From contig NC_057758.1 of the NCBI RefSeq assembly GCF_004010195.1, forward strand, positions 657,396 through 721,395: 64,000 nucleotides of DNA. Direction: 5' to 3'. This stretch comes from Chiloscyllium plagiosum (Eukaryota). A program made the position numbers and the translations under genes. Under the pieces are notes generated by a model. It did no database searches. It saw only the letters and a program-made list of their open reading frames with translations, and was not told where the DNA came from. Of the stretch, positions 7,780 to 59,716 are shown piece by piece (within the stretch, counting starts at the first letter, position 1; each line of letters begins with the position of its first letter).

Positions 7780-10700
7780 ACTACCTCACTTTCCAACGAC
7801 TTCCTCATTGTTTAACGCATTTTGAGACACATAACATTTCACAATATCTGAATGTTATTCCTCACTCCGCAGGGCTGTAACTAATATCTGTTTCTCCAGC
7901 AATTCTTTCTCGGTCATTATAAGACGGTTTCAACATATTCACATGGCATATGCGATACAGTTTATTGTTTCCCTTTCTGACATCTTCACCAGATAGTTTA
8001 CCTTGCTCAACCTTTTTTTTCTTAATTTGATAAGCACCACTAAACTTGACTTTGAAGAGATCTCCTACTACATGTAACAATGCGATTGCATCATCTCCAC
8101 CGGAAAATTGTTCGAATTTCAGTGGTTTTTTATCTGAAACATGCTTCCTTCTATGCTGTAACCTACGCTGTGCTCTGTTTAGTTAACACAATCAGTCCCT
8201 CCCTCACATCTGGTATATAATCCAAGTGTGAGATCTCCGAGTTCTGTCCAGTCAATTTATCTTTAATTTCAAATTGACTCTCTTTTCATTTTCTAATATT
8301 AACGCAAAGGGAGTAAACTGAGCAGATTCGTTTGGGGCAACTTTAAGACAAACAGCACAGGTTTGATACATTTATTCCAATGATTCTGCTAATCCAGAGA
8401 GTGTGTTATTCCTGATACCATTGGGATTCAGGGAGACACGCACTTGATTTAAAGTGCTGTACAACGAAGCTATCTATGACTTTCTTTCTGATCCTAGCAA
8501 TAAAGTTGGATCCTTGGACTGATTGAACGTCTCTGAGTAGTCCACACCTCGTGAAGAAACCTAATAAGTCCTTTGTCATCCTTTTTGCCTCAATACTCCG
8601 TAATGGAAATGCCTCCGGACATATTTTCATCACATCCATTATGTTTAGCGAGTACTGGTTCCCACTTTGAGTTCTCGGGAGGGGACCTACAGAATCAATA
8701 AGAACTCACATGAAATATTCTTTAAATGCGGGAATTGGTAAGAAAGACGCCCGTGCCTTTCCTACCAGTTGGCATGTATATCATGTACAGCAAAAGTTAA
8801 CCACATCCGTGTGTATTCCAAGTCAATAGAAATGTTTTTTGTAAAATTGCCCGAATCTTCCAATCACCTTGCTGACCTCCTTCTGGTATGTTTTTTGTAA
8901 AATTGCCCGAATCTTCCAATCACCTTGCTGACCTCCTTCTGGTAGCTCATGTTCTACCGACAACACAGCGGGTGCACTTCTGCCCATTTCTCTTCTGCAG
9001 TAACCTCTCGTGGTCTCCATGTTCGCCTTAGGGTTCTATATTATAGATAACAATACTCAGGAATATTCTCTCCCTCAATTTCTGAGTATGCATCAACATA
9101 TATTTTATTTAATGTCTCGTCTTTCTGTTGTACCTCCATTTGCCTTCCAGGAGTAATCACTTCTGCCTGACCCTCTACCTGTTCAGGTTTTTCCTGCACC
9201 ATTTCGCCAAACAGGGTGTCCACTAACGGAATGTCAATTCCTTTGTCTTTCTCTTTAGGTTTGGAACTTTAGTTTCTGGAACTGGCACTGTCAATTATTC
9301 CACTGTTACTTCCTTAGTCTTGAGTTGGCACTCCAACCTGATCTTACATAGGGGAACGCTAAAGTTCTCTCCATCTACCCCTCAAATTAAAACTGTTTCC
9401 GGTAGCAGGTCAGCAAGAGTGTAAATACGGCCATCTCTTACTATTTGATGTTGGTTAAATCCTGCAGCCCTCGGTATTATAGCTTATTTCACTTCTTCAC
9501 CTTACTTTCTCAGTATATTTTACACACAGAAATGAATTCTTCAAAGAGATCAGGCACTTACTTCATACACAGCCCTTCCCACGGCTGTGCACTCTCGTGA
9601 AGCTCCTCGTCTTTTCTTGGGGTTTCCATTTCCACTTTCACTTTGCCACTGGCTTGACCTCTTTGACCACACCTTTTTGCAGTGTCCTTCCTTAACGACC
9701 ATCACTGTGACTTTACGTATCCAATTTTATCACCTGAGGCATTTTATCCTGAGGCATTACAATTCATTTTCACCCTATTGGGATTCCTTTTTAACCTGTG
9801 GCAAACAATTGCCAGTGCTCTCCACTCTTTGCTTGTAGTGTAGGATCTCCCATTCTCCCAATTTCTATCCGTCACAGGGTAAAATTCTTGCTGGAAGCTC
9901 AATTTTGTCTTTGCAAAAATATATGTATGTCTGCCACCTCTTTTGCTCTTCTTGTTTCTGGAACGTTCCCTTCATCCAACTGAATTCTTATCATCTCTGG
10001 AAGTGAGTTTTCAATCTCCTCAAGCAGAATATTCCCTCTTAGAGCCTAATAGATTGTCTGTAGTTTGAAGTCCGCACCCATCTGCCAAAATTCCGATATC
10101 CAAGTCTTTCATACTCAACATAACTCTGGACAGGTTCCTTCTTTATGTTTCTGAACCACGATATATACTCTTCTGCTACCTAAGTACTCAAAATAGCCTC
10201 TTAATAATATTTTGATCCCTCATCTGACAGCGCTCCAAATACCTCTCTGTCTCTGCCCACCAGTTTAGTCTGAACTACCCTTATCCACAAGTTCTCTGAC
10301 CACTCCAACTGCCAAGCTAATTTTTCAACTGAAATTAAGAAGCTTCGACATTTTTCTCATCAAAATATGGCACTATTTTAACACACTTGTACATGTCACT
10401 ACATTCTCTTGTCATCTCTATCCTGTGTATTTGACTTTGATGTCAAATTCACAATTTCTGACGTTCAAACTCTCTCTCCATCTCTCTTTCTTTTCTCTCT
10501 TTTTCACTCTTCCTTACTTTTCTCTCCCCAACCACCCCAAACCCCCACCCCTCACTCTCTCTTTGCTCTCTCTCTCGTTCTCTTTCTCTTTCCTTTTCTT
10601 TATCTTCAAACTCAATTTTCGTCAATTGCAATTTCGGTTTTTCAAACTCGACAGGACTTGTCTGTGTCTCTGACACACACAAGTGCTTGAGTAACTCCCT

Positions 10701-11196
10701 TACATTTTCAGATTTACTTTTCTCCTTTGTTGATCCCAATTCTAACCTCTTTGTTAATTCCAAAGGTATGAATTTTACTTTCCTTTCTCAATTTTCTTGG
10801 CAAATTCGTGAATCATCTTCAAACCCGAGAACCTCTTTAGCAATTCATAGAAGATTCTACATAGAACGTCACAGTGCAGTACAGGCCATTCGGCCCTCGA
10901 TGGTGCGCCGACCTGTGAAATTAATCTGATGCCCATCTAAACTACACCATTCCATTATTATCTATATGTATGTCTAATGTCCATTTCTATTCCTTTCAAT
11001 TTAACCAACTCCAAACCAACGAAGGTGAAAGAAATGTCTCCTCTACGTTTTTTTTTTCAAACCTTCTAGGGCACTAATTGGCAAGTGTTTAAATATGATG
11101 GAATTTTTCCTACCCCAAATCTGTTCAACTCAGTCCAAATCTTAGACTGTATTTGTTTAAAACTATACCAGTCACGGGCCGATCCCCAAAACTGTT
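7780..11196 (-). mobile_element. Decayed Gmr1-like Gypsy LTR retrotransposon (PBS, SCAN-type gag, protease, integrase; RT not recognisable)
   Basis: Integrase motifs CPEAFPLRSI...FFTRCGL...QGSNF, KFSGAYQI and RICHVNMLK. Gag coiled coil at 10449-10763 and SCAN-like LLEEIENSLP. LTR end taaca followed by a degenerate tRNA-Pro PBS (ttggggatcggcccg) at ~11175-11196. Integrase directly follows protease. 55-bp internal tandem duplication at 8836-8944. Confidence 0.82.
10845..10988 (-). mobile_element. Short CR1 3' tail inserted in the Gypsy leader
   Basis: catagaa...caggccattcggccctcgatggtgcgccgacc is the reverse complement of the CR1 3'UTR and tail. Confidence 0.8.
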
Positions 11197-24839: not shown

Positions 24840-25042
24840 AGAGATTTAAAAAACTGCAGATGCTGGACTCCAAAATACAAGCAGGAGGCTGGAAGGACAC
24901 AGCAAGCCAGGCAGCATCAGGAGGTTCAGAAAGTCACATTTCATGTGTAACCTGAAGAAGGGTTTCACCCGAAACTTCGACTTCTCCACCTCCTCATGCT
25001 GCCTGGCTTGCTATGTTCTTTCAGCCTCCTGTCTTTCCAATT
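24840..25042. mobile_element. Penelope-derived inverted-repeat mini-element with hammerhead-like core
   Basis: Arms caggaggctggaaggacacagcaagccaggcagcat and atgctgcctggcttgctatgttctttcagcctcctg. CTGAAGA-AGGGT-TTC-ACCC-GAAAC at 24952-24975. Decayed TSD (11/14 match) at 24826-24839 and 25043-25056. Confidence 0.8.
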
Positions 25043-26029: not shown

Positions 26030-27008
26030 ATTATAGAACAAAAAATAAAGGAACACGCCCTTCGGCCCTCCAAGCCTGGGCAGATCCAAATGTACTGTCT
26101 AAACCTGTCATTCAATTCCTAAGCATCTGTATCCCTCTACTCCCCACCTACTTATGCATTTTTCCAGATGCATCTTAAATGAAACTACCGTGCCTGCCTC
26201 AAACACCTCTGCTGGCAACGCGTTCCAAACGTCCACCACCCTCTGTCTGAAGTACTTGCCGCGTGTATCCCCCTTAAACTTTCCACCTCTCACCTTGAAA
26301 GCGTGACCTCTCGTTATTGAATCTTTTACCCTGGGAAAACGCTTGTGTCTATCCACCCTGTCTATACCCTTCATGATTTTATAAACCTCAATCCGGACCC
26401 CCCAGTCTCCTTTTTTCCAATGAAAATAAACCTGACCTACTCAACCTTTCTTCATAGCTAGCACCTTTCATGCCAGGCAACATGTTCTATGCGCCCTCTC
26501 CGGAGTGTCCACATCCTTTTGGTAATGTGGCGACCAGAACTGTACACAGTATTCTAAATGTGGCCGAACCAATGTCTTGTACAATGTTAACATGACTTGC
26601 CAGGTCTTATACTCAATATTCTGGATCAGTGGTGCTGGAAGAGCACAGTGTTCCGCGGCGGAAGATGAGGCGTTCTTCCTCCAGGCGTCTGGTGGTGAGG
26701 GAGCGGGGGTGGAGGAGGCCCAGCACCTCCATATCCTCGGCAGAGTGGGAGGGGGAGTTGAAATGTTGAGCCACGGGGCGGTTTGGTTGATTGGTGCGGA
26801 TGTTTACCTCTTATACTCAATACCCCGTCCAATGAAGGCAAGCCTTCTTGACCACTCTATCCATCTGTGCTGCAACCTTCTGGGTAAAATGGACTTGCAC
26901 TACCAGATCTCTCTGCCCATCAACTTTTCCCAATGAACTCTTCCGTTCATTGTATAATTCGCTTTAGAAATAGTCTTGCCTAAATTCATCACCTCGCATT
27001 TGTCTGGA
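26030..27008 (-). mobile_element. CR1 3' fragment
   Basis: ORF 26108-26374 reads TRGHAFKVRGGKFKGD.RGKYF.QRVV..WNALP, with tail at ~26030. Confidence 0.9.
26619..26808 (-). mobile_element. Penelope fragment (GIY-YIG C-terminus fused to terminal-repeat end) with 14-bp TSD
   Basis: TSD tcttatactcaata at 26605-26618 and 26809-26822. Minus strand encodes TNQPNRPVAQHFNSPSHSAEDMEVLGLL...RRLEEERLIFR. Confidence 0.88.
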
Positions 27009-28828: not shown

Positions 28829-29160
28829 ATGAGGAAGCTGGAGAAATCTATATTCATCCCGTGTGATTGGAGGGTTCCTAGGCGGAAGATGAGGCGCTCT
28901 TCCTCCAGGCATCGTGTGGTCAGGGTCTGGCGCTGGAGGAGGCCAAGGAACTGCATGTCCTTGGCGGAGTGGGAGGGGGAGTTAAAGTGTTCAGCCACAC
29001 GGCGGTTGGGTTGGTTGGTGCGGGTGTCCCAGAGGTGTTCCCTGAAACGTTCCGCAAATAGGCGGCCTGTAGAGGAGACCACATCGGGTGCAACGGATAC
29101 AGTAAATGATGTGTGTGGACGTGCAGGTGAATTTGCAACGGACTTCTGTGATGTTTATCG
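28829..29160 (-). mobile_element. Penelope-like element, GIY-YIG endonuclease remnant
   Basis: Reads FTCTSTHIIYCIRCTRCGLLY / TGRLFAERFREHL..RTNQPNRRVAEHFNSPSHS...EEERLIFRLGTLQSHGMN, with a frameshift at the YIG motif. Confidence 0.9.
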
Positions 29161-29444
29161 CATTGTACACCTTTTCCACTAATCCAGGCTGTTCTACTCC
29201 TTACATTAGAAGAAATGTACTCCAAAATGCTTGTCCTGCGGTGTTCATTAATCTGGTTCTCTCTGTTCTTCCTGTTAGACTTGTTTTGACTTAACATCAA
29301 CATTCTCGATCACTCCAAATATTCACAGACTGCTCTGTTTCCCAGCCTGCTTGTATTAGTTCTATGTGCCCTCTAAGATATCCCAATGATGCAGATATCT
29401 GAGGAACTTCCTCCTACACCAACCGTGGTTTCAACAACATTGCC

Positions 29445-32360
29445 TTCCTATTCCTAGCCCCTCTAGCACTTCACACAGGGAGTAATCGCAAGATGTCAAT
29501 CCCAGAGGTCATGCGTTTTTAACTTCCTATCTACTTCCCTAACTTTCCTTTGTAGGACTTTGTCTCTTCGAATGGAATGAGGAGAACAGGTAAGGCAGAT
29601 GACCTGACAGCTTGGATTTGTACATGTTTCTACAAAGTACTAATCCAATGTACACCGTCACAAAAACTTGGTTGAGAGAAAGGCAAGATTGACACCTTAA
29701 TATGCCAAAGTTTAGATGCTTCAGGCGAGAGAAGTGTGAGGGATATAGAAAGGTGCAGTCACTGTAATGGGATTATACTAAAGATCTCCAAATAGCCAGA
29801 GGAACACATATGTAAGAAGCTGATGGAAAGATGTAAAAACAACAGAGTTGTTGTAGAGGGCGATTTAATTTCCCCAATATTGCCTGAGACACCCGTTGTA
29901 CCAGTGGCTGAGATGGGGCAGCTTTTGTACCAATGCCACGGTACAAATCTTTCAACCTTGGCACCAAGGTGGCAACACATCATCCTGGAAGCTTGGAAGC
30001 TCCTTTGTGACCACAGCAACGCCTGTCTGTGCTCCTAGCTACACAGTCTCCTGTCATGACTGCTCACCGACACATTGACACCCCTCCCACAGTACAGCAG
30101 TGCCACTGACCTCCTGCTTTCCCCTGAAAGGTTATTCTGCCCCCACAACACATTGCAAAACGGTATACCTGTTCGAGAGGGGAATGGCTACAGGGGACTC
30201 CCGCACTGCCTGCCCACACTTTCTCATCTTGCTATTGGTCACTCAATTCTTTTCTGTCATCTGTCCTGATGATGTTACCAGCTCATTAAACATGGTGTCC
30301 ACACCATTCCCAGCCTCATGGGTGCTCCGTCGTGAGTCCACTCACAACTCCAGGCACTCTGCGCAGCACGTCAGGAGCTGTAGCTGGAACACACTTCCTC
30401 CCTCACTCCCTCACCTTAGAAACTGGGAGTGTCCCGAATTAATGTACTAGAGGGACGGGTTTTCCTGTTATTTTAAACCTCGGCGACTGCATACAATAAA
30501 CTAGGAACCCACTACACAACCTTTCCCACTTCTCACGAAATTCCTGTCGCTGGTTCTCTATTCCTAGCAAACTACAAACCATAGGTATAAGTACTTTATG
30601 TGCCATCTCCCTCTCTCCCTCCCTCCCTAGGTCCCTCGAGCTGCTTCCGAAGCAGCCAATCCCTCTGTTATATTTTGAGTTGTAATGGAACCTCCAGAGG
30701 TTGGTCTTTGGATTCAGTTTAGCTTTGCTGTGCTTGATCCACAGCTCTGACTGACCTTGATCCAGGCGCCATTCCTCAGGTGTTTATCAGGAAGAGCCTG
30801 TCACTGTTTATGCCCAGCGATCAGTCTGTAGGCTGGAACTCACTGCCCAGTGCGTGCTGCTTTATGTATAAACCGCTCAGCGTACAGCCTGTCACACACT
30901 CCACAGCAATTTCCTGTTTCATGTGTAATCCCCTCGATCAGAGTACATGTTTTTCTGTATCTCATCCCTTTGATCAGAGTGTGGGCTGTTATCCACTCCC
31001 TGTCTATTCTATTTTATACGTAAAACAGTCAGAGTACTGTATCTGACTCACTCCTGAGTATGTGTTGTGTTGTACCTAAAAACCTTCCCTAGGGGTAGGG
31101 AGATCAGGTTGTGACTGTACAGGACCTTGGTTCGGCCACTGTGGGAATGCTGCGTGCAGTTCTGGTCTCCCTGCTAGAGGAGGGATATTATGAAGTCTGG
31201 AAGTATCCAGGAAATATTTGAAAGGATGTTACCAGGGTTCGAGTGTTTGGGTTATAAGGAGAGACTGTACACACTGGGGTATTTTCCCTGGAGCGTCGGA
31301 CGGTTAGGGCAGATCTTCTAAGGTTTATAAAATCACGAGGGGCATAAATAGGGTAAATAGGCAAGGTTTTTTCCCAGCTGTGGGAGAGTCCAAAGCCAGA
31401 GGACGTAGGTTTAGGTGAGAGATGAAAGATTTAAAGGGGATCTAAGGGGCAGCTTTTTCACACAGAGAGTGGTGCATGTATGGAATGAACTGCCAGAGGA
31501 AGTGGTAGAAGCTGGTACAATTACAGCATTGAAAAGGCATCTGCATGGGTGTCTGAGTTTAGACGGATGTTGGCACAGCTGAGCTGGAATGAACAGTCTG
31601 TTTCAATGCTGTGTATCTCGGTGATGCTTTGATTCGATGAGAGTGCCATCTGTAACTTGCCAGCTAGTATACATTGTTTTATACAGAACTCTCTTGCTAA
31701 GGGCGGTCTATAGCAGACTTCCCAGCATAAGTGGTTTTAGATGTAAATTCCTTGATCACAACAGAGTCTAGCTCTTGCCACTCTGTTGTTTATGACATCA
31801 ATCCGTCAATTAAAGTATTGCTCCGCCTTCTCTGTTGCCTGAAGGATACATTCTTCAATCGGATTTAAATAAGCAGGAATTGTTCTACCTATTTAATCCC
31901 CCGATCAACTTACTGTCTGTATCGCACACTCCAGTATATGTTTGAAAAGCAGAAGTTGCTGGAAATCTCAACAAGTCTGGCAGCATCTGTGAAGAGGAAG
32001 CAGAGTCGACATTTCGGATCCAGTGACTCGCCGACAGAACTGGACTCAAAACGTGAAGTCTGTCCTCTTTGCACAGGTCTGTTGAGCTTTTCCAGCAATT
32101 CTTATTTTTGTTCCTGTTTTTCAGTATCTACCTTTCTTTTGCTTTTATATATAACTGCATCCATCAGTGTACAGTATATTATTCTCGCTCGTCTATTTTG
32201 TCTTTATGTACAAACCCTTTGAATAGAGTACTGTTTGCAACTCAATTTCTGGAATGCTTTGTTTTTGATTGCAGTGCAGTGCGTAACTCACTCTCCCGTC
32301 TCCTACATGTAAACCCCTCGATCAGAGTTCAATGTGCAACTCACTCCTAAGTCTGTTGTT
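29445..32360 (+). repeat. Segmental duplicate, copy A (CR1 EN/ORF1/3' fragments, Penelope inverted repeat at ~31945-32120, old ~50-bp minisatellite)
   Basis: Near-identical to 35289-37941. Offsets are 5844, then 5571, then 5581, due to two indels. The ORF track gives identical translations in both copies. Confidence 0.95.
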
Positions 32361-34043
32361 ACAGACCATCACACAGTCAGGGAGTTACAGATGGTCAGAC
32401 ACAGAGAGGTGCAGATGGTGACAGACAGTCAGAGAGTTACAGACCGTCACAAACAGGGAGTTACAGACAGTCACACGCAAGTTGTTACAGACCATCACAC
32501 AGTCAGGGAGTTACAGATGGTCAGACACAGAGAGGTGCAGATGGTGACAGACAGTCAGAGAGTTACAGACCGTCACAAACAGGGAGTTACAGACAGTCAC
32601 ACGCAAGTTGTTACAGACCATCACACAGTCAGGGAGTTACAGATGGTCAGACACAGAGAGGTGCAGATGGTGACAGACAGTCAGAGAGTTACAGACCGTC
32701 ACAAACAGGGAGTTACAGACAGTCACACGCAAGTTGTTACAGACCATCACACAGTCAGGGAGTTACAGATGGTCAGACACAGTCAGAGAGGTACAGATGG
32801 TGACACACAGTCAGGGAGTTACAGACCGTCACACAGTCAGGGAATTACAGACAGGCACACACAGGGAGTTACAGATGGTCAGACACAGAGTTACAGACCG
32901 TCACATAGTCAGGGTGTTACAGACAGTCGCACAGTCAGGGGGTTACAGACAGTCACACACAGGGAGTTACAAATGGTCAGATACAGGAAGTTACAGATGG
33001 TCAGACACTGTCAGAGCGGTACAGACTGTCACACATGGTCAGGGAGTTACAGATGGTCTGACACAGTCAGAAAGGTACAGATGGTGACACATGGTCAGGG
33101 AATTACAGACAGTCACACACCGGGAGTTACAAATAGTCAGACACGGAGTTACAGACAGTCACACACACAGGGAGTTACAGACAGTTACACACAGAGAGTT
33201 ACAGACAGTTACACACAGAGAGTTACAGATGGTCAGCCACAGAGAGTTACATATGGTGACACAGGTCAGGGCATTACAGACAGAAACACACAGTCAGGGA
33301 GTTACAGACCATCACACAGTCAGGAAGTTACAGACCATCACACAGTCAGGAAGTTACAGATGGTCAGACACAGTCAGAGAGGTACAGACGGTGACACAGT
33401 CAGGGAATTACAGACAGTAACACACAAGGAGTTACAGACCGTCACACAGTCAGGGAATTACAGACAGGCACACACAGGGAGTTACAGATGGTCAGACACA
33501 GAGTTACAGACCGTCACATAGTCAGGGTGTTACAGACAGTCACACAGTCAGGGAATTACAGACAGGCACACACAGGGAGTTACAGATGGTCAGACACAGT
33601 CAGAGAGGTACAGACAGTGACACACAGTCAGGGAGTTACAGACAGTCACACAGTCAGGGAGTTACAGATGGTCAGACACAGTCAGAGAGGTACAGACGGT
33701 GACACACAGTCAGGGAGTTACAGACCGTCACACAGCCAGGAAGTTACAGATGGTCAGACACAGTCAGGGAGGTACAGATGGTGACACACAGTCAGGGAGT
33801 TACAGACAGTCACACACAGGGACTTACAGATGGTCAGACACAGTCAGAGAGGTACAGACGGTGACACACAGTCAGAGAGTTACAGACCATCACACAGTCA
33901 GGGAGTTACAGACCATCACACAGTCAGGGAGTTACAGACAGTCACACGCAAGTTGTTACAGACCATCACACAGTCAGGGACTTACAGATGGTCAGACACA
34001 GTCAGAGAGGTACAGATGGTGACACACAGTCAGGGAGTTACAG
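32361..34043 (+). repeat. Minisatellite of 22/26-bp variant units (acacagtcagggagttacagatggtc) with three perfect 126-bp higher-order repeats at the start
   Basis: Visible directly, and as the 42-aa triple repeat in ORF 32334-33521. Confidence 0.95.
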
Positions 34044-34283
34044 TTGAGACCTGTTCGAGAGGTGTCAGACCGCTGCCTGGACTCGGAGCTGTTTCCTGTC
34101 AGTCTGACAGATGGTTAAACTCCTGGGGTGGGGGGTGTGGGGTGTGGGGGGAGGTGGGGGGGCTGCCTGGCGTGAGTTGAAGGGATTGCGGGATCTGGCG
34201 TAAGCGTTCCCTCTCCCTCCCACTCTCCCTCCTTCCCCACCCTCTCGACCGCTCCCAGTCTCCCCAACCTCTCCATCACTTAC

Positions 34284-34296
34284 CCAAATCATCCAT
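34284..34296 (-). CDS. Candidate first coding exon of a paxillin-family gene (PXN/TGFB1I1/LPXN), MDDL + G, phase-1 donor; apparently orphaned
   Basis: Minus strand reads gaagg ATG GAT GAT TTG G|gtaagt: strong Kozak (A at -3, G at +4) and a consensus donor. Paxillin-family proteins start M(D/E)(D/E)LDALL, and as recalled they have an intron after coding base 13. Only 13 coding nt support this call. Confidence 0.6.
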
Positions 34297-34306
34297 CCTT
34301 CAGGTC

Positions 34307-34350
<44 letters not shown>

Positions 34351-35010
34351 GTCTGTGCCCCTCTCGGACACAGGGGGCTACTCCGTGTCCCTGCTCCCTC
34401 TCATCTTGGAGAGACCAGAGAGTCGAGGGAAGGAGTGGGAAGGAGGGGAGGGGCAGGATCTGACAAGGGAAAAAAATCTGACAAGTGAGGCAGCTGGGAG
34501 ATTTGTCCATGTAAGGTCTGACTGTTGAGGGTTATACAGACATGGAACAGGCAAGGAAGAGAGAGAGAGAGAGAGAGACACACACAGGATAGGGCAGGAG
34601 TGTTAGCTCTGCAGGAATTAGTTTGGAGCCAGCGACAGAGACAGAGAGAGAGAGAGAGAGGAGGCAGCTGGGAGATTTGTCCATGTAAGGTCTGACTGTT
34701 GAGGGTTATACAGACATGGAACAGGCAAGGAAGAGAGAGAGAGAGAGACACACACACACACACACAGGATAGGGCAGGAGTGTTAGCTCTGTAGGAATTA
34801 GTTTGGAGCCAGCGACAGAGACAGAGAGAGAAAGTTTTAAGTCTCTCTCCTCTCTCCTCTCTCTCTCGCACACACACACGTCGTTCCAACAGGAAATACC
34901 AACACACAACTATTTAAACCATCCAGGAGCCTGGCAAACGCACTGGGAAAAGATGGAGAGATCTGTCTCCCTGCTCACAACCCAACCCCGTTCCCAGATT
35001 ATCCCAGCCC
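34297..35010 (-). promoter_or_regulatory. Putative 5'UTR/promoter of the MDDL exon, with GA/CA microsatellites and a ~175-bp tandem duplication
   Basis: Non-TE sequence, GC-richer than its surroundings. TATA-like tttaaata at ~34911-34918 (minus strand). Duplicated block at ~34487-34660 and 34661-34830. Confidence 0.4.
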
Positions 35011-35019
35011 CCCGCACGC

Positions 35020-35288
35020 TGAGGGAGCTTTACTCAGCACCTATCCCCGTGCTGTCCCTGTCCCTGGAAGCGGGGACTGTGTAGAGAGAGCTTTACTCTG
35101 TATCTAATCCCGTGCTGTCCCTGTCTCTGGAAACGGGGACAGTGTAGAGGGAGCTTTACTCTGTATCTAACCCCGTGCTGTCCCTGTCCCTGGGAGTGTT
35201 TGATGGGGGACAGTGTAGAGGGAGCTTTACTCTGTATCTAACACCATGCTGTTCCTGTCCCTGGGAGTGTTTGATGGGGGGGATAGTG
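35020..35288 (+). repeat. ~55-67-bp minisatellite (gagggagctttactctgtatctaaccccgtgctgtccctgtccctgggagtgtttgatggggacagtgta)
   Basis: About four tandem variant copies. Confidence 0.92.
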
Positions 35289-37941
35289 TTCCTATTCCTA
35301 GCCCCTCTAGCACTTCACACAGGGAGTAATCGCAAGATGTCAATCCCAGAGGTCATGCGTTTTTAACTTCCTATCTACTTCCCTAACTTTCCTTTGTAGG
35401 ACTTTGTCTCTTCTAATGGAATGAGTAGAACAGGTAAGGCAGATGACCTGACAGCTTGGATTTGTACATGTTTCTACAAAGTACTAATCCAATGTACACC
35501 GTCACAAAAACTTGGTTGAGAGAAAGGCAAGATTGACACCTTAATATGCCAAAGTTTAGATGCTTCAGGCGAGAGAAGTGTGAGGGATATAGAAAGGTGC
35601 AGTCACTGTAATGGGATTATACTAAAGATCTCCAAATAGCCAGAGGAACACATATGTAAGAAGCTGATGGAAAGATGTAAAAACAACAGAGTTGTTGTAG
35701 AGGGCGATTTAATTTCCCCAATATTGCCTGAGACACCCGTTGTACCAGTGGCTGAGATGGGGCAGCTTTTGTACCAATGCCACGGTACAAATCTTTCAAC
35801 CTTGGCACCAAGGTGGCAACACATCATCCTGGAAGCTTGGAAGCTCCTTTGTGACCACAGCAACGCCTGTCTGTGCTCCTAGCTACACAGTCTCCTGTCA
35901 TGACTGCTCACCGACACATTGACACCCCTCCCACAGTACAGCAGTGCCACTGACCTCCTGCTTTCCCCTGAAAGGTTATTCTGCCCCCACAACACATTGC
36001 AAAACGGTATACCTGTTCGAGAGGGGAATGGCTACAGGGGACTCCCGCACTGCCTGCCCACACTTTCTCATCTTGCTATTGGTCACTCAATTCTTTTCTG
36101 TCATCTGTCCTGATGATGTTACCAGCTCATTAAACATGGTGTCCACACCATTCCCAGCCTCATGGGTGCTCCGTCGTGAGTCCACTCACAACTCCAGGCA
36201 CTCTGCGCAGCACGTCAGGAGCTGTAGCTGGAACACACTTCCTCCCTCACTCCCTCACCTTAGAAACTGGGAGTGTCCCGAATTAATGTACTAGAGGGAC
36301 GGGTTTTCCTGTTATTTTAAACCTCGGCGACTGCATACAATAAACTAGGAACCCACTACACAACCTTTCCCACTTCTCACGAAATTCCTGTCGCTGGTTC
36401 TCTATTCCTAGCAAACTACAAACCATAGGTATAAGTACTTTATGTGCCATCTCCCTCTCTCCCTCCCTCCCTAGGTCCCTCGAGCTGCTTCCGAAGCAGC
36501 CAATCCCTCTGTTATATTTTGAGTTGTAATGGAACCTCCAGAGGTTGGTCTTTGGATTCAGTTTAGCTTTGCTGTGCTTGATCCACAGCTCTGACTGACC
36601 TTGATCCAGGCGCCATTCCTCAGGTATTTATCAGGAACCGCCTGTCACTGTTTATGCCCAGCGATCAGTCTGTAGGCTGGAACTCACTGCCCAGTGCGTG
36701 CTGCTTTATGTATAAACCGCTCAGCGTACAGCCTGTCACACACTCCACAGCAATTTCCTGTTTCATGTGTAATCCCCTCGATCAGAGTACATGTTTTTCT
36801 GTATCTCATCCCTTTGATCAGAGTGTGGGCTGTTATCCACTCCCTGTATATTCTATTTTATACGTAAAACAGTCAGAGTACTGTATCTGACTCACTCCTG
36901 AGTATGTGTTGTGTTGTACCTAAAAACCTTCCCTAGGGTAGGGAGATCAGGTTGTGACTGTCCAGGACCTTGGTTCGGCCACTGTGGGAATGCTGCGTGC
37001 AGTTCTGGTCTCCCTGCTAGAGGAGGGATATTATGAAGTCTGGAAGTATCCAGGAAATATTTGAAAGGATGTTACCAGGGTTCGAGTGTTTGGGTTATAA
37101 GGAGAGACTGTACACACTGGGGTATTTTCCCTGGAGCGTCGGACGGCAGCTGAGCTGGAATGAACAGTCTGTTTCAATGCTGTGTATCTCGGTGATGCTT
37201 TGATTCGATGAGAGTGCCATCTGTAACTTGCCAGCTAGTATACATTGTTTTATACAGAACTCTCTTGCTAAGGGCGGTCTATAGCAGACTTCCCAGCATA
37301 AGTGGTTTTAGATGTAAATTCCTTGATCACAACAGAGTCTAGCTCTTGCCACTCTGTTGTTTATGACATCAATCCGTCAATTAAAGTATTGCTCCGCCTT
37401 CTCTGTTGCCTGAAGGATACATTCTTCAATCGGATTTAAATAAGCAGGAATTGTTCTACCTATTTAATCCCCCGATCAACTTACTGTCTGTATCGCACAG
37501 TCCAGTATATGTTTGAAAAGCAGAAGTTGCTGGAAATCTCAACAAGTCTGGCAGCATCTGTGAAGAGGAAGCAGAGTCGACATTTCGGATCCAGTGACTC
37601 GCCGACAGAACTGGACTCAAAACGTGAAGTCTGTCCTCTTTGCACAGGTGATGCCAGGCCTGTTGAGCTTTTCCAGCAATTCTTATTTTTGTTCCTGTTT
37701 TTCAGTATCTACCTTTCTTTTGCTTTTATATATAACTGCATCCATCAGTGTACAGTATATTATTCTCGCTCGTCTATTTTGTCTTTATGTACAAACCCTT
37801 TGAATAGAGTACTGTTTGCAACTCAATTTCTGGAATGCTTTGTTTTTGATTGCAGTGCAGTGCGTAACTCACTCTCCGGTCTCCTACATGTAAACCCCTC
37901 GATCAGAGTTCAATGTGCAACTCACTCCTAAGTCTGTTGTT
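35289..37941 (+). repeat. Segmental duplicate, copy B (with a ~273-bp deletion in the CR1 3' piece)
   Basis: Matches 29445-32360. The junction ggacgg|cagctgag is at ~37146. Confidence 0.95.
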
Positions 37942-38065
37942 TTATGTATAAACCCCTCGATTAGTGTGCAGTCTGTAATTCTCTTCCCAGTTTGTGATGT
38001 TTTGTATGTAAACCCGTCAATCAGATATCTGTTTGTGAGTCTGTTTTCTCACTGTTCCGACACAG

Positions 38066-38312
38066 ACAGAGTCAATGTACACTCTGATGGAGGCTTACAA
38101 GGGGAGGTTGGTTCCACAACAACATTGAACTGTTCGAGAGCAGCACACCTCAGGACAGTGAGATGGAGAGCAGCGATATGATCAATATCCAGTTATGCTC
38201 CTTCTAATGACATCAAGAAAGAGTGCTCTGCCAATAGAAGTGGGGACGGGGGCGAACATTGTACATATAGACATCTAACCCTCATAATGTCCCAGTTCTG
38301 ATGGTTCCTGCA
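38066..38312 (+). pseudogene. Possible decayed Ig-superfamily V-type domain exon
   Basis: Acceptor ttttctcactgttccgacacag| with phase-1 start. Reads DRVNVHSDGGLQGEVGSTTTLNCSRAAHLRTVRWR (G..vTL.C plus C-strand W), then a stop at 38179. A frameshifted LTL/HNV/SDGSC remnant lies near 38275-38310. Confidence 0.4.
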
Positions 38313-39024
38313 GTCAAATAGCAACCATGCTTTGGCTCCCCGTGTTGCGTTCAGTCAGAATTCTTCTGCTTGTAGTTAATTCCAAAGAGCTTTGATCAAC
38401 ACAACGTATTGTTCATTCATATAGAGGAATGTTGTCTTGGTTTGTACCTGCTGGAAAATGAACCCCTCTACTTTTTAAACTCAAGGTAAAGCTCCTGCTT
38501 CAGTGTCCACTCCCAACGCAGTTACAGCACAAGTTCAGAGACAGGTAAATCTCCCGCTCAACAGTGCGAGACTCGCCGTCTTAAAATCCATTGGATTGGT
38601 CAATATGAGGAAACGTTAGTAATGCTGCAGTCCGTGTCCTAGGTAGACCCCAATGCCATTAGAATGACAATAACTTTCGAGGTCAGGATGGTGTGTGGCG
38701 GGAGGGGAGCTTGTTGAGGTAGTATTCCTATGTATGAGCTACCGTCATTCTTCTAGGTGGAAGTGGGCACGGGTTTGTAGTGTTCCGATTTACAATCAGT
38801 GATCTGATTTTTTTTAGGTGGCTCGATTTGCCCCGAGATCCCTGGTTCTAGACACTGGAATTATAGAATGTGAATTGAAGAAGGCAGTAGGCAGGTGTTT
38901 CTCGGCAAAAGAATCTGAGCGTTTATTTAGATAACTACAAAAACTATCACAAGAAATCCAGTAAAACACTAAACAGTGAAATTAGCATGAACAGTTATAC
39001 AGACGATAGAAATTAAATTTTCTG

Positions 39025-50689: not shown

Positions 50690-53600
50690 GTTGTAAATGA
50701 CAAATTCCAAAAAATCTAAGATTAAAAAATAAAGTTGTGCAATGAAATGGGAGTGGCCCTCAGCTTTTCTCTGTTTTGTTTTGTTACCAGCAGTGTGAAG
50801 AAAGGCTGCTGGACCCAGAATTGGTCCATGCTGACCTGCCTCTGACTTTGATCATTTAAGAAGTTGTTTAATTTTATCTTTTGTGTGCCAAGGAGTGTTT
50901 ATGTGGATTGTTGCAAGTATCTGGAACAACATCATTAAGTTGAGATAGTCTGTTGAGTTTTCGGATAGGATAATCTATTCGGTATTCTGTTTTCTGTTCT
51001 GTGTCTTTCATTCGGTAATCATGTAAATACATTGTGTTTTATTTAAAACTAAATGGTTTGGCCAGCTGATTCTCTCCTGGAATATCTATTTTACACCTGT
51101 TTAAAATAACCCGGTTGGGGGTTTGGCAAAAGGTAATTAAGACCAAGCTGCTGGAAAAAGCAGACAAGCTGGAGTTGCACCTGCCTCATTATGAAAGGAA
51201 AGGATTGATAATTACAACTATAGCTCAGATTTTACATTTCCTGGAAACACCATCAGAACCTTTAGAGATGGCTACAATTCAATTCAAAATTAAGCAGCTT
51301 TAGTTGGAGGCAAAAGGCAAGGAATTGCAATGAAAGCAGAGTAACGAGGAAGAGAGAGAGAGAAGATAGAAGGGAGAGAGAAAGAGAGAGAATTTGAACT
51401 TTGGAAACTGCCACTTTGACAGGAGTTCAAAAGTAGTGAGAACGCATGCAGAAGAGCAGGGGGTTAAAACAAGATTATCAGCTGAAATGGCTGATGTTAT
51501 AAGTTGGTCCTCAAAGCTGTGTTTGGCTTCCAGAATCAATTTCAATCCATAAAAGATAGAAATTGGGGAAAACAGAAATCCTCACGTTGAAAGGGAAAGG
51601 TAGATCTGGGTGAAGATCATAAAGATAACCTACCACAGGGTAAAAAGGGAATCATTGAAGGGGACAGAGAAGTGAAAAAGTTAAATAAGCTAAATGTTTT
51701 CACTGAAATGAAGGAGCCTGCATGAAATAACAGTTTTGCTGTGTTATAGAAGTACTGGGCAGTCAGATACAGGAAAACAGAAAAAGCCAGTGGTAGCAGA
51801 AAGCACAGTTGAGAATAGAGAGCTGCTGCAGAGTATACAAGCTGGTCGGAGGTTGGTTAAGGAGGGAGTGTCAGGTCTTCTTCAACCATATACGTGCGAA
51901 GGTAAAGTTTATTCACATAGAACAGGAGCAATAGGTAAAGAGGTTACAGTACTAAGACACACAGCATCTTCTCAGTCTTTAATGCTGAAAGATGATACTT
52001 CTGAAGGACTATTTCCAGAAAAGTAAATAGCAACGTGAATTTACGATGAGACAAAAAGTGGTTAATTATGTGACGTGAGGTTAGAGTGTTCAGAGAAGAG
52101 TGGATAATTCGTGATAGGAGCACTGGACAAACTCTAAGATCCAGAATAAAATTTGTCCTTGATCATGATAGAGCTGATTCACCAGGAGGAGTGTTGCCTA
52201 CTGTGGTTGAAAAGCGAATGAAAACTCAGGCAACTGAACTATTGCAGAATACATATCCTAGAAATTTTCCTGACAGTGTGGCAATAAAGTCTCAAAGTCG
52301 CCAATTCAAACAGGAGAGCTCAAAGAATACAGATAAGAAAGTTAAAGTGGAATTAACAGATTGATCAGATAGTTAAGACAAAGCAAGAACAGATGTATGA
52401 CAATGCAGACATCTTTGGCTCAGCCAAAGTAATTGATTTAAAGCAGAAAGATGAAAACTCGAAGCAATTGAATCCAAAGGAACACTAAAAAGTAACCTGA
52501 ATGACTCCATAAATATTATTACCTTAAAAATTATGTCTTAATGAGGAAATGAAGACAATCACATATTCAGGCAGATGAAAATGCGCAGAAATTCATCAAA
52601 TCATATTGCCAGTGGGGACAAGAAGGAAGTGCTGCAAGTGATGCATGAGCTACGATTTAAGGGTCATTTAGAAGTGTGGAAAACACAAGATAATTTGCAA
52701 AAATATTTTTCCTTCCCTGGTGTGTACAAGGATGTAGTTGAATTTTGCCAGGTGTGCCCTACATGTCAGGTAATTGGAAAACCACAGATGTTAATAAAAC
52801 CCGCACCTTTAATACATATTGCTGTTTTGAGGAACCTTTTACAAGTGTCATATTTGATTGTATAGGTCCCCTATCTCAAATAAAAAGTTGGAATCAGTAT
52901 TTGTTCACAATGATGGATGTAGAGACTAGAATAGAGAGGCTGTTCCATGACAGTGTCACAGCAGCAAGATATGCAGAGGAATTACTCAAATATTTCACTA
53001 GATATGGAACGTCGACAGAGATACCATCAGTTTACGGGTCAAAGTTCACACCAAAAGTATTGATGGAAGCTCTGGACAGCTTAGGAATAAAACAACTCAA
53101 ACGTTCGATAATATTTCTCCATAGTAGGTTAGTGTGCAAAATGCGCAGGAATGGGATTGCGGGAGATATAGCAGTTTGGATCAGTAATTGACTTGCTAAA
53201 AGAAAACAGAGAGTGGTGGATGATGGGAAATTTCATACTGGAGTTCAGTTGCTCGTGGTGTACCGCAAGGATCGGTGTTGGGTCCACTGCTGTTCGTCAT
53301 TTTTATAAACGACCTGGATGAGGGGGTAGAAGGGTGGGTTAATAAATTTGCAGACGACACAAATGTCGGGGGAGTTGTGGATAGTGACGAAGGATGTTGT
53401 AGGTTACAGAGAGACATAGATAAGCTGCAGAGCTGGGCTGAGAGGTGGCTAATGGAGTTTAATGCGGACAAGTGTGAAGTGATTCACTTTGGTCGGAGTA
53501 ACCGGAATGCAAAGTACTGGGCTAATGGTAAGATTCTTGGTAGTGTAGATGAGCAGAGAGATCTCAGTGTCCAGGTACACAGATCCAGGTTGATAGGGTT

Positions 53601-56600
53601 GTTAAGAAGGCATACAGTGTTTTAGCTTTTATTAATAGAGGGATCGAGTTCCGGAACCATGAGGCTATTCTACAGCTGTACAAAACTCTGGTGCTGCCGC
53701 ACTTGGAGTTTTGTGTATAGTTCTGGTCACAGCATTATAAGAAGGACGTGGAAGCTTTGGAAAAGGTGCAGAGGAGATTTACTAGGATGTTGCCTGGTGT
53801 GCAGGGAATGTCTTACGAGGAAAGGCTGAGGGACTTGAGGCTGTTTTTGTTAGAGATAAGAAGGTTGAGAGGTGACTGAATAGAGACAAATAATATAATC
53901 GGAGGGTTAGATATGGTGGACAGGGAGAGCCTTTTTCCAAGTATGGTGACGGCGAGCACTAGGGGGCATAGCTTTAAATTGAGGGGTGATACATATAGGA
54001 CAGATGTCAGATGTAGTTTCTTTACTCACTGAGTAGAAACTATATGGAATGCTTTGCCTGCAACAGCAGTAGATTCGCCAACTTTAAGTACATTTATGTT
54101 GTCATTGGACAAACATATGGACGCACATGGAATAGTGTAGGTTAGATGGGCTTCAGATTGGTATGACAGGTCGGCGCAACATCGAGGGCCGAAGGGTCCC
54201 GTGGTCCATGTTCTACTGCATACCACCAGCATTGCAGTGATCGCTGGAAAGTTGGCATCAGACATTGAAGACCATATTGAGAGCTTATACTGAAGACTAT
54301 CCAGATGATAAGGAGAAGGGAAAACTGTTTGTCCTTTTTGCGATCAGAGGTGCACCAAATGAATTGTCCAAGTCCAGTCCATTTGAATTTGTTGAAGTGA
54401 GAGGACCGTTAAGATTGTTTAAAGAGAAATCGGAAATTTGAATCCACATATCTGGACTATGTATCAAATTTTAGGGAGCGATTAAATGGAGGTAAGAAGT
54501 TGGTTAGATAGCATTTAAACTTCGCACAGAGTACAATGAAAGAATAAGCAGACAAGAAATGAAAAATTCACGATTTTGCTGTCCGACATAATGTATTACT
54601 GTTACTTCCAATTATAGATGAACCTTTAAAAGCAAGGTTTAATGGACCTTTTCAAGTCAAAAGGAAATTAAGTGAGGTGAACTACTTGATATGGACTCGA
54701 GACAGAAATAGAAATCTCAGAGTGTGTCATGTGAAAAGGGTCAGAAGATATTTTGACAGGAAGGAAAGCAAGAGGCGAATTTGTTATTCATTACAACCAA
54801 GACGGTTGAACCAAGTTCAGGGGATTCTGAATTGGGCATTCTTCAAATTAAATTGGACAAATAGGAAGTTGTCAAAAATAGAATTATTTATTGTGTTACC
54901 TTCCAAATAAAAGTGAAAATGACCTGAAGAAGGGACTCCTATCACATGGGGAGATAGGCGGAAATAAGTTGGGTTGTACTAACCTAATTATGCACGTTAT
55001 AGATATTGGAGATGATGTTCTGATTAAGCAGTATCCTTATAGGTGTACCCCTCTAAAGTAGTCACAGGTGCAAAAGGACTTTGAACGCATACTGCAAGAT
55101 GACATATTTGAAGTGAATTAAAGTGACTGGAGCTCACCCATAGTAATTCTGCTAAAACCAGTTGATACCCAGCGGTTATATGTGAATTGTGCACAGTCAA
55201 CGGAGTGACAAAAACTGCTGCATATCCGATTCCGCGTTTGGAAGTCTGTATTGAGAAGGCGGGACAAGCAGCATATATTTCTCAGTTAGACTTTCTTAGA
55301 GGAGGCACCTTTGTCAGAAAGAGCAAAGGAAACTTCCGCTTTTGTCATGCCCAATGGATTGCATCAGTTTAAAGTCATGCCATTTCGCAGTAAAAATATA
55401 CCAGCCAGATTTCAGAGACTAACCAAAATGGTAATTTCTGGATTACTTAACTGTGTCATTTAATCTCAAATGGAAGGAATATTAACAACATTTATCAGAC
55501 CTATTTGTTTGACACGGGAAGGCAAGCTTGGTGAAAAGCCTGGTTAAAAGCGAATTTGCCAAAACCCAAGTGACTTTCCTGAGTCATGTATTGGATTCGG
55601 ACAAATTACCCCACGGTACGCAACAATGAAGATAATTGAGCAGGTTCCCATACCATCAACAAAAAGAGCAGTGTTTATGTTGCTCGTGTCGCATCTGGGA
55701 CAATCATACGCACTGATTTTAACCAACTGAAGTTTGCAGAGACTGTTTCAATCGAGCTTGTTGGTACAGACATTCCATTTGAAAATCGTACATGAGGCAG
55801 GACGAGAACATGTGATTGTCTACACATAGCCGACACTCGAATGAGAAATGAAGGCATTTGGTTGCAGGAGTGCAACAGACTGAAACGGAATGTAGCTGTG
55901 CATGTCTGCATGTTTACACTCAATGTAATCTATATGTGTATTTTGGAGATCTAACAATTTTATGGGTGTTTAAAATGCTGTAATCCTTGAATATTGATGG
56001 TTCATTTTTTAAGAGGGGAGGTGTGACAAAGCTGTTCCTTTAACAAGGTGTGCTGTCCTTGACATTTTTTTCAGAGGGCTCTTAAATGACAGACTCTGAA
56101 AAATCTGAAGAGTGAAAGATTTTAGAGCCAATTTGTTTGTAGCTAACAGGTACTGCATCAGGCAGAAGGTTTTCAAGTTTAAAAAAACTTGTAGAATGAA
56201 AGGGGAGTGGCCAGTTCTCAGAGCTCACCATATTCTCGTGTGATTTTTCTTTTCAGCACGAGTGTGAAGAAAGGCTGCTAGACCCAGAATGAAGGTCCAT
56301 GCTGATCACTCTCTGACTTCTATTCTGTAAGAACGTGTTTGATTTTACCTTTTGTGCCAAGGGGAAATTTATGTGGATTGTTGCAAGTATCTGGAACAGC
56401 ATCATTAGGTTGGCATAGTCTGTTGGGTTTTCGAATAGACCAAATTATTCGGTATTCCTTTTATTGTTCTTTGTGTTTTATTCAGTAACCTTGTAAATAA
56501 ATTCTGTGTTTTTAAAGCCTAAATGGTTTGAGCAGCTGATAAATGGAAGACCCATTTTACACCTGCTTAAAACAACTAGCAAAACTATGTTCTCGGCTAC

Positions 56601-56638
56601 CTTGAAATGTTTTTAGCAGTCTAGCGTGGTCCATAACA
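50690..56638 (+). mobile_element. Decayed Gmr1-like Gypsy LTR retrotransposon: partial 5' LTR, gag, protease, integrase, RT, RNase H, PPT, 3' LTR
   Basis: 5' LTR remnant ~50740-51110 matches 56195-56575. Protease VLRHTASSQSL. IN zinc finger HE...GHL...FCQVCPTCQVIGK and core IFDCIGPL. RT (AYPIPRLE.CIE..G.A.YISQLD) lies downstream of IN. PPT aagaggggagg at 56011-56021. 3' LTR tgtgaca...ataaca at 56022-56638. Confidence 0.9.
53101..54214 (+). mobile_element. 5'-truncated CR1 inserted in the Gypsy integrase
   Basis: Integrase LGIKQLK| resumes as TAYH after 54214. The insert encodes [18 protein letters not shown]...FADDT and a CR1 tail. Confidence 0.92.
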
Positions 56639-58520
56639 ACGCCAAGGATAGAACGAGTGAAATGAGGAGTATAAACTGTTAATCTCGGGAAAGGACAACT
56701 GGGAAGACAGATAGCATTGTTAATTGCAAAACATTCCTGAGTCATTTTGACCTCGATAAAATAAGCAACCTCAGCTTCACAAATAACACTCGCTCGGTAT
56801 GATGCAGCTGGTAAGTGTCTGCAGAGGTGAATAACATTGAGAGGGGAGTTGGTAAGTAACGAATGCAAAGCTGCATAGACTCATTGTAACGTGAAGTGTG
56901 TGAATGTCCAGTACATCATGGGAAGGGCGGCGACTTGGAGTCTGTCAGTATTAACATTTCTGAGTCTGCATGGGTAAGGAGCTCAGAATAAAGATGATTT
57001 ATGCTGTTGAACACAGGACTCAAGATGCTGCTGCAGAATTTCTCTCCAACAGAGTCAAACAGAACAGGAGCACGATGAAGTGGGAATACTGTCCAAAATA
57101 ACAGAGAATATACGGAAATACAAATACTGCATAAACGGTTTGGGAACATATGGAAATGGTAATACTGTAATAAATTGCAGAGATGTATCAACGATGGAAT
57201 ACTGCCTGTGGACGTGGGAAAACTATCCAAAATAACAGGTAATATATGGAAGTGGAAATGTTAATCAAAATGAAAGGAATGTGTGGAAGTGTGTATATTG
57301 TCTAAAATAACTGAGACACATTAAAGCTCGAATTGCACAGATAAATATGCTAATATATGGAATGGGGAATACTATATTCAAACAAGGGAAAATATGGATG
57401 TTTGAACACCATATGTAATGAAAAGAACATAAGAAGTTTGGAATGCTGCCAAAAACAACAGGAAGAATACATTCCAAATATGTGGGAATACGTTCTAATA
57501 TATCAGGAACACATGGAAGAGGAAATACCTTAAAATATACCTGCTTAAAACAACTAGCAAAACTATGTTCTCGGCTACCTTGAAATGTTTTTAGCAGTCT
57601 AGCGTGGTCCATAACAACGCCAAGGATAGAACGAGTGAAATGAGGAGTATAAACTGTTAATCTCGGGAAAGGACAACTGGGAAGACAGATAGCATTGTTA
57701 ATTGCAAAACATTCCGGAGTCATTTTGACCTCGATAAAATAAGCAACCTCAGCTTCACAAATAACACTCGCTCGGTATGATGCAGCTGGTAAGTGTCTGC
57801 AGAGGTGAATAACATTGAGAGGGGAGTTGGTAAGTAACGAATGCAAAGCTGCATAGACTCATTGTAACGTGAAGTGTGTGAATGTCCAGTACATCATGGG
57901 AAGGGCGGCGACTTGGAGTCTGTCAGTATTAACATTTCTGAGTCTGCATGGGTAAGGAGCTTAGAATAAACATGATTTATGCTGTTGAACACAGGACTCA
58001 AGATGCTGCTGTAGAATTTCTCTCCAACAGAGTCAAACAGAACAGGAGCACGATGAAGTGGGAATACTGTCCAAAATAACAGAGAATATACGGAAATACA
58101 AATACTGCATAAACGGTTTGGGAACATATGGAAATGGTAATACTGTAACAAATTGCAGAGATGTATCAACGATGGAATACTGCCTGTGGACGTGGGAAAA
58201 CTATCCAAAATAATATATTTTGGTAATATATGGAAGTGGAAATGTTAATCAAAATGAAAGGAATGTGTGGAAGTGAGTACAATGTCTAAAATAACTGAGA
58301 CATATTAAAGCTCGAATTACACAGATAAATATGCTAATATATGGAATGGGGAATACTATATTCAAAAAAGGGAAAATATGGATGTTTGAACACCATATGT
58401 AATGAAAAGAACATAAGAAGTTTGGAATGCTGCCAAAAACAACAGGAAGAATACATTCCAAATATGTGGGAATACGTTCTAATATATCAGGAACACATGG
58501 AAGAGGAAATACCTTAAAAT
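56560..58520 (+). repeat. ~978-bp tandem duplication covering the LTR 3' end and flanking A-rich degenerate repeat
   Basis: acctgcttaaaacaactagc starts at ~56561 and ~57539. Paired ORFs 56916/57894 are offset by 978. The copies differ by scattered SNPs. Confidence 0.93.
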
Positions 58521-59716
58521 ATTAAAAAATAAAATTTGAAAGCTTCAATCCTCCAAAACAACACAAACATGTAGAAGTTGCAATTCTGCGCAAAATATCA
58601 ATGAACACATGGGAGTGCAAAGCAATAGCGGTCATGCAGAGGTGTGAATACTGTTTAAAATAGCACGACCATGTGGATGTTAAAATATAGTCTAAAATGA
58701 AAGAAACATTAGGAATTGGAAAACTCTTGGAAATTCAATGAAGATTTTGAGGTGGGAATACTGTCTAAAATAACAGGGAACAATTGGAAGAGGGAATGCC
58801 ATCTCAAATTACATGACCATGTGGACTTATGTTTGGGCATTCAACAGTGTGCAGCTGTCTACTGTCTACAGCAATACAATATACAAAGTGAGGGACAACT
58901 GATATTTGGACTCAGAATTATGCAGCACGTGTATTGTCTACAATAATATCATATTTATAGTAATGCAACATCTACAATGTGAAGTAAGTGACAGTTGGAC
59001 AAGGGATAAGTGGACACTGCACAGTAAGCAGCCTACGTACCGGCTTTAGTCATGCACTATCTGCAGTATGAGAAACTCTTTATTTGGCCACTCAGCTGTT
59101 GTAACCCTACATATTGAATTCCCGATCACACAATGAGATGCTGGTTTATGTTCCAGTCTTTAACGTTGGACAGTGCTTCGTTTTTTTAGAAATCTGAGAC
59201 ACTGAGTGATGCCTCGTACCAGTTGAGGCCTGTGTTTGAGCCAAATATTCAACGTACCAAGCGATTCTCCTCACATTCCTGAAGTCGGAGTATTTATGAC
59301 AGTTATGTTCACTTCCAGGTTTTTGTTCTGTTCTTATATCCATGAGGGTTGATTCTCACCAACTTGGTTATTACCAAAGGCATAACAATAACAAGTCAGC
59401 TAATGAGTGGTATTGACGTGCAATGGCAGTGTCCCTATCCTTGAGTCAGGAGGTCTTTGTTCATGTACCCCATCGCCTCATCAGACCTTTAACAATTAAT
59501 ACTACCTTAAAATGACGGCAGTGTTTGTTCAGAATGTCGAATGTCTTGCTGTACTTAGAGGCCATGATTGGCATAAGTGAAAGCAGCAATTATCAGTTTT
59601 TAAACTCGCTACAATTCTGCAGAGAATTGTGCATTTGGATCTTTGAAACAGGCTGGGAGATTATGGCTGCATTATTGCTTCTGATTTTCCGCTGGGTCAG
59701 CATTAATTTTCCCTTT

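Follow-up and report, generated by a model that had tools for sequence, protein, structure and literature searches.

The window analysed here, the whole stretch of 64,000 nucleotides from the shark Chiloscyllium plagiosum (NC_057758.1, positions 657,396 to 721,395), raises the question of how a short exon resembling the beginning of a paxillin-family gene came to lie in a field of repeats, and to which gene it belongs. In the parts that were read, the remainder of the window consists of decayed repeats of the CR1-like and Gypsy-like types, and Pfam matches to RVT_1 and Integrase_H2C2 were obtained in two of six pieces. The coordinates of the features are collected in the table below.

On the minus strand, positions 34301-34278 read gaagg ATGGATGATTTGG and then gtaagt, the ATG beginning at 34296 and the last exon base being 34284. 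The ATG has an A at -3 and a G at +4 (Kozak context). Its frame reads ART*RMDDLGK*, and because a TGA stands in frame at -6, no upstream extension of this start is possible. These observations bear out the first-pass annotation, which had described MDDL plus a phase-1 G followed by gtaagt with a strong Kozak context. The "perfect donor" of the same annotation holds for the intron side (GTAAGT) and not for the exon side, where the exon ends in TGG. The level of chance was estimated with two patterns, both composed after the site had been seen. The pattern RNNATGG-N8-G followed by GTAAGT has one match in the window and was reached in none of 100 shuffles; the pattern M-[DE]-[DE]-L-G followed by GTRAG also has a single match in the window, and none in 100 shuffles. 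Open mini-exons of at most 60 bases running from a Kozak ATG to GTAAGT occur twice in the window when both strands are considered, the second one at +19897.

Features of the exon region, the insert and the doubled host block (window positions)
Feature	Positions	Strand	Basis or remarks
First coding exon, 13 bases: Met-Asp-Asp-Leu and one G, phase-1 intron next	34284..34296	-	Sequence, shuffles, paxillin N-terminus
Splice donor GTAAGT	34278..34283	-	Predicted donor (sequence)
TGA in frame, -6 from ATG	34300..34302	-	Translation
Start of intron 1	34044..34283	-	G+C 0.62, CpG o/e 0.39, no CpG island
(AG)19 microsatellite in presumed 5' UTR	34311..34348	-	Contigs end there
Presumed 5' UTR / proximal promoter	34361..34545	-	Identical in runs under two organism labels
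CArG-like box CCTTACATGG	34507..34516	-	210 bases above ATG; 9/10 vs mouse Tgfb1i1 CCATACATGG
174-bp tandem double	34487..34834	.	Second CArG-like copy (34681-34690); three contigs continue past 34487
Minisatellite, 1.7 kb, unit ~26 bp	32361..34043	.	Three perfect 126-bp units at junction
Satellite-like repeat, 63/71 bp	35021..35288	.	Very abundant in four runs; ends at upstream junction
Host block B1	29445..32360	.	Has 272 CR1 bases (31304-31575) absent from B2; lacks 10 bases of B2
Host block B2	35289..37941	.	2.65 kb, 99.7% identical to B1
Old CR1-type repeat	29342..29547	-	Unbroken through 29445 (B1 left end), cut at B2 left end

In mammals, the genes PXN, TGFB1I1 and LPXN carry a phase-1 intron after coding base 13, which splits the motif LD1. 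An intron of this phase at this position is present in the window sequence, as read from the predicted donor; no paper stating it for the paxillin family was found in our literature search. The N-terminus of solved paxillin (PDB 2vzd_C, 4edn_K) reads MDDLDALLADLE / MDDLDALLADLESTT, so that MDDL of the window matches residues 1-4 and the trailing G can begin Asp5. In bioRxiv 10.1101/278903, LD1 is given as DLDXLLXDLE for paxillin and as ELDXLLXELE for leupaxin. Tested with the consensus LDXLLXXL, the window carries MDDL and the G alone, which fits the start of this paxillin form. Judged from these features, the exon in all likelihood belongs to the paxillin family.

The identity has four codons only, and the exon could represent another gene beginning with MDDL, or an ATG and a donor paired by chance within promoter-like DNA. 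A 28-base pattern from the window gave no matching stretch in the metagenomes. The LD1-type pattern detected three metagenome loci and no viral locus; the three frames look bacterial and unrelated to paxillin, so that they supply no shark paxillin-family protein for comparison. We nevertheless hold this explanation to be very unlikely in view of the shuffles (0/100), of the TGA in frame upstream, of 185 identical bases found under two organism labels and of an independent upstream CArG box of the Tgfb1i1 type, as listed for the mouse in PMC5289827. As a separate observation, the bacterial-looking acidic repeat frames L001:1401-1499 (minus strand) and L003:2758 onward (plus strand) share the first 11 residues of paxillin, a chance mimic of LD1.

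Contrary to mammalian PXN, which has a CpG island, the shark exon shows none (o/e 0.33-0.39). It differs from mammalian TGFB1I1 by residue 2, which is Asp as in paxillin, by the lack of the rest of the gene in the window and by its position in foreign DNA. In the elephant shark, Table 1 of PMC5091871 contains one pxn, one tgfb1i1 and no lpxn. Since four codons cannot separate these paralogues in a shark, the upstream region was examined.

Mammalian Tgfb1i1 is a target of SRF. In the mouse, the S3 table of PMC5289827 gives CCATACATGG as an SRF-bound site located at the promoter/exon 1 of Tgfb1i1 in C2C12 cells and conserved in human. The shark box CCTTACATGG shares with this tabulated site a non-consensus C and differs from it by one base, an A to T change that remains within the CArG consensus. 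For a site with at most one mismatch from the tabulated mouse box, the background of the window gives an expectation of 0.007 per 300 sense bases, and such a site was obtained in 0.8% of 20,000 shuffles. This comparison assumes the orientation of the mouse box with respect to Tgfb1i1. Generic CArG sites with one mismatch are common (74 in the window vs 94 by chance), and weight is therefore given only to the specific match with the mouse box of that table. Pxn is absent from the nine-gene CArG table of PMC5289827, which was no test of Pxn. On this evidence, the CArG-like box favours tgfb1i1 over pxn or lpxn, and if the exon belongs to the paxillin family the gene is probably tgfb1i1 (Hic-5). 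The assignment to the paxillin/Hic-5/leupaxin family in the first-pass annotation is supported by both elements, MDDL agreeing with solved paxillin and the box with the tabulated site of mouse Tgfb1i1. The same match suggests that SRF control of Hic-5 may be common to sharks and mammals; in literature searches judged mostly by titles, no title on a shark Hic-5 promoter was found. The region thus appears to be the true 5' end of a shark gene of the paxillin family, in the first place tgfb1i1, and to comprise its promoter, its 5' UTR, the first coding exon of 13 bases and the beginning of the intron.

Several smaller elements surround the box. A CAGAC element adjoins it (34521-34507, minus strand) and TTGTCAGA occurs twice just downstream; we take both to be possible Smad-type sites. 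On the minus strand, an upstream ATG at 34510, inside the CArG box, opens a frame of 72 codons, which runs across the main ATG in a different reading frame, and another at 34404 opens a frame of eight codons; both matter only if transcription begins above them. The 174-bp tandem double may be a feature of the assembly or of the individual.

The exon region is included in a foreign piece of 2.93 kb (32361-35288), composed of the minisatellite, the exon region and the satellite, and this piece is located between the host blocks B1 and B2. The junction on the minisatellite side displays a 6-bp microhomology with the host block (GTTGTT), the upstream junction a homology of about one base. From the alignment of B1 with B2, we observe 9 mismatches in 2,643 aligned bases (0.34%) and gaps of 272, 10 and 1 base. 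Transversions account for eight of the nine substitutions (P 0.004-0.02 if transitions are taken to make up 50-60%) and five of the nine fall in two clusters of at most 13 bases. Only one substitution could be clearly polarised, at position 31119, where B1 agrees with all eight other copies, the rest being weak or mixed; the 272-bp gap polarises as a loss in B2. With the same reference copy, the local score of the CR1 repeat is 93 across 29445 vs 52 across 35289, and on the opposite side a host repeat passes unbroken over the right boundary of B2 (37941). The CR1 repeat running through 29445 and the host repeat running through 37941 indicate that the ancestral order was left flank, B, right flank. 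The G+C content of the insert (0.49-0.55) exceeds that of B and the flanks (0.45-0.48), and the insert is also richer in tandem repeats; in PMC10620051, short shark chromosomes are described as tending to higher G+C and to tandem repeats. No N is present between 28829 and 45521, and hence no gap lies between the copies of B or at the junctions of the insert.

The exon could also be an ordinary native first exon, followed by an intron 1 of more than 34 kb, in which case exon 2 would lie beyond the window or be hidden in one of its four gaps on that side. Below the donor (34283), 1,692 of 34,283 bases are indeed N, distributed in these four gaps. The CR1 repeat, however, breaks off at 35289 and is resumed at 29445, and at 37941 B passes natively into its right flank, which implies that a conserved promoter was moved into younger host DNA; the higher G+C of the insert also speaks against this explanation, which we consider highly improbable. 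The exon piece is very probably not native to the locus.

Exon 2 was searched in the readable part of the window. Minus-strand acceptors of the form AG followed by AY-GC/GA-N-YTN-YTN are absent from the window, the single match (48413) being on the plus strand. Neither an LD pattern on the minus strand nor a full LIM pattern was found in the window; the four C-terminal LIM domains and the further LD motifs that mark the family would be located at the parent locus. With looser acceptors on the minus strand, the candidates 27094, 14028 and 10057 read DCIL, DRVL and DNLL, none of them an LD motif, and were rejected as exon 2. The foreign piece ends 1,923 bases below the donor, so that the lack of an exon 2 is what one would expect and does not count as evidence of its own; likewise, host repeats run natively through both outer ends of the blocks and exon 2 is therefore not expected downstream. 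Two statements of the first-pass annotation are in agreement with these results: the absence of an exon 2 downstream, no fitting minus-strand acceptor being present in the readable window, and the description of the piece as a captured insert, which the doubling of B and the continuity of the CR1 and host repeats confirm. The further statement that exon 1 had been copied away from its parent gene is supported as regards displacement, the junction anatomy showing a non-native piece; a copy whose parent retains an exon 1 is not demonstrated by the covered parts, which show one version in four of four runs.

For these runs, the listing comprises 32 pieces (beside 16,001 unlisted), 24 loose ends (beside 404) and 15 joints (beside 28). 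Among the 24 runs listed, 20 contain part of 34050-35020 and none contains half of it; no run recorded as RNA is found among those listed as containing part of this interval. Contigs of four runs (X1, X2, X8 and X12) were compared; they come from three studies and carry two organism labels, X8 and X12 having no recorded RNA/DNA type. The comparison leaves out the simple repeats beside the exon, and as the contigs end in (AG)19 the exon joint lies outside the coverage. The contigs of X1, X8 and X12 cover 34361-34545 with no difference and no gap, and those of X2 cover 34361-34460, 34050-34174 and 34884-34963 with no difference. On the intron side and above the microsatellites, X8 is absent and X12 is present only at ~34099-34150, these holes being uninformative. 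Within the covered parts of 34050-35020, no differing letter was detected in any of the four runs, among the matches listed. One X1 contig of 466 bases begins with 338 letters unlike the window and joins it precisely at 35289; this contig is the sole source of the depth of 14 in the bin 35324-35372. The depths of the X1 contigs, 25.3 for the upstream piece, 14 at the block junction and 29.9 in one block bin, fit one or two copies, contig depth being no measure of copy number. No contig bridges the upstream junction 35288/35289 among the 32 pieces listed for the four runs. The promoter-side DNA thus exists in other samples, with one visible version among the matches listed.

One sequence version in four of four runs, and no listed contig over 35288/35289, make an assembly misplacement at least as likely as a copy whose parent keeps exon 1. 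We give about even chances to a false duplication in which the gene's own exon 1 was misplaced inside. Two haplotypes of block B, differing by the 272-bp deletion, would have been laid end to end and left unmerged; a small repeat-bounded contig with exon 1 would have been placed between them, and the gaps closed by extension. The parent gene would then lack its 5' end in this assembly, and the animal would have no orphan promoter. At its proper place, the CArG box of the parent gene would be bound by SRF, and splicing from the donor would lead to an exon 2 completing LD1.

B1 and B2 differ, as two alleles might, by 0.34% and by reciprocal gaps of 272 and 10 bases; the 272-bp gap falls inside the doubled block, and such an allelic difference would be a natural cause of unmerged haplotypes. 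The window also contains six N gaps and near-perfect doubles (56 bases x2 at 8832, 126 x3 at 32361, 174 x2 and 980 x2 at 56558). No second version of the insert was detected in the four runs among the matches listed, and the 466-base X1 contig passes from other sequence into B precisely at 35289. The run data would be accounted for just as well, however, by a copy that only the assembled animal carries. Under either model, the native left junction (29445) would yield the X1 contig too, and contigs can drop a junction beside an abundant repeat. The junction homologies of 6 and ~1 base are short, since assemblers normally need a longer overlap than this, and eight transversions among the nine substitutions are odd for alleles. 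The two junctions of the insert are free of N, whereas PMC9516828 lists gaps between the two copies among the signs of false duplications. Heterotype false duplications are described there as the commonest class of false duplication (PMC9516828). The locus resembles those reported by the Vertebrate Genomes Project in having two near-identical copies on one scaffold of a gapped assembly, and in the insertion of exons in wrong places; it differs from them by the lack of a gap between B1 and B2 (PMC9516828). Should misplacement be the right explanation, the tgfb1i1-like gene of the shark would be modelled in this assembly with neither its promoter nor the beginning of LD1, and the doubling of 2.65 kb would not be real.

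The main alternative, possible but in our view clearly less probable, is a real and recent rearrangement of the replication type, a single cycle of templated insertion. The fork would leave at the end of B, copy the 2.9 kb of a tgfb1i1-like 5' end and return to the start of B, doubling B; the parent would keep its exon 1, and the copy would be a true orphan, perhaps polymorphic. In the assembly, the foreign segment is flanked by a doubled host segment, as such a cycle requires. The layout, with the insert between two copies of B and these between the left and the right flank, corresponds to the cycle architecture with rereplication of the host segment, and microhomologies of 6 and ~1 base lie in or near the 2-7 bp class, both as described in PMC7025897. 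A distant template, a rereplicated host segment and short microhomology are thus common to the shark locus and to these cycles, which are known in human tumours with 2-7 templates; one template is involved here, in a reference assembly (PMC7025897). The absence of N at the junctions is also in favour of a templated insertion. So are the five of nine substitutions that fall in two clusters of at most 13 bases and the eight of nine that are transversions. Error-prone synthesis could yield clustered and transversion-rich substitutions. Clustered G/T and A/C differences, five of the nine, also fit read errors; the substitution spectrum of B1 and B2, compatible with read errors and with error-prone synthesis alike, is not decisive. 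Against the templated insertion, neither a second version of the insert nor a contig over 35288/35289 was observed in the four runs among the matches listed, and deletions of 272 and 10 bp beside only nine substitutions are many for a young duplicate. If the insertion is true, it would be a small germline example of a class of rearrangement described in tumours, with no sign yet of a function.

Transport of the piece by the machinery of Penelope-like or CR1 retrotransposition seems barely plausible to us. A Penelope-like endonuclease remnant is recognised by eye at ~28833-29170; this remnant has no Pfam match. None of the six matches to a hammerhead core in the window (5.8 are expected by chance) falls in 29445-37941. 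There is no tail at the 3' end of the insert (32361), the insert keeps upstream and intron DNA, and B is native host sequence at both ends and not the terminal repeat of an element.

Concerning transcription, the first-pass annotation had proposed chimeric or antisense transcripts running through the repeats and against plus-strand exons. This proposal is unsupported: the promoter faces lower coordinates, no host exon was found in its path, and the plus-strand exon-like piece at ~38056-38430 lies behind it. We consider quite unlikely the more far-reaching possibility that a recent germline templated insertion moved an intact SRF-responsive tgfb1i1 promoter and its LD1-splitting exon into a CR1/Gypsy field, doubling 2.65 kb, and that the orphan would be active in smooth muscle and splice to cryptic acceptors in repeats. 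Such a case would represent a natural promoter capture near its birth, and the CArG box would trace the control of Hic-5 by SRF back to the first jawed vertebrates.

Other features were noticed in the surroundings. The plus-strand piece at 38056-38430 resembles by eye a decayed immunoglobulin-domain exon, with an acceptor, GEVGSTTTLNCS, VRW, later RVAFSQNSSACS, and stops; the interval 38056-38435 has no Pfam match in three frames and no PDB match in one frame. At 5114-5460 (plus strand), beside a gap, an open piece looks by eye like the membrane anchor and tail of a retroviral env and gave only weak, unrelated Pfam matches. Two frameshifted pieces, at ~28833-29170 (minus strand) and 26647-26803, have by eye the appearance of the C-terminus of a Penelope-type endonuclease; they are 82% alike over 157 bases and have no Pfam match. 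Short cores of the form CTGANGA...GAAA are present at 24952-24974 (plus strand) and 60934-60957 (minus strand), their count in the window being at the level of chance. The region 56558-58522 is a 980-bp tandem double with 98% identity (8 transitions, 5 transversions and one gap), either a real duplicate or unmerged contig ends, and perfect short tandem doubles occur at 8832-8944 (56 bp x2) and 60135-60190 (29 bp x1.9). Finally, two decayed Gypsy-like elements broken by CR1 pieces extend over ~7860-10790 (minus strand) and 51100-55700 (plus strand), the latter containing an integrase zinc-binding domain at 52545-52862.
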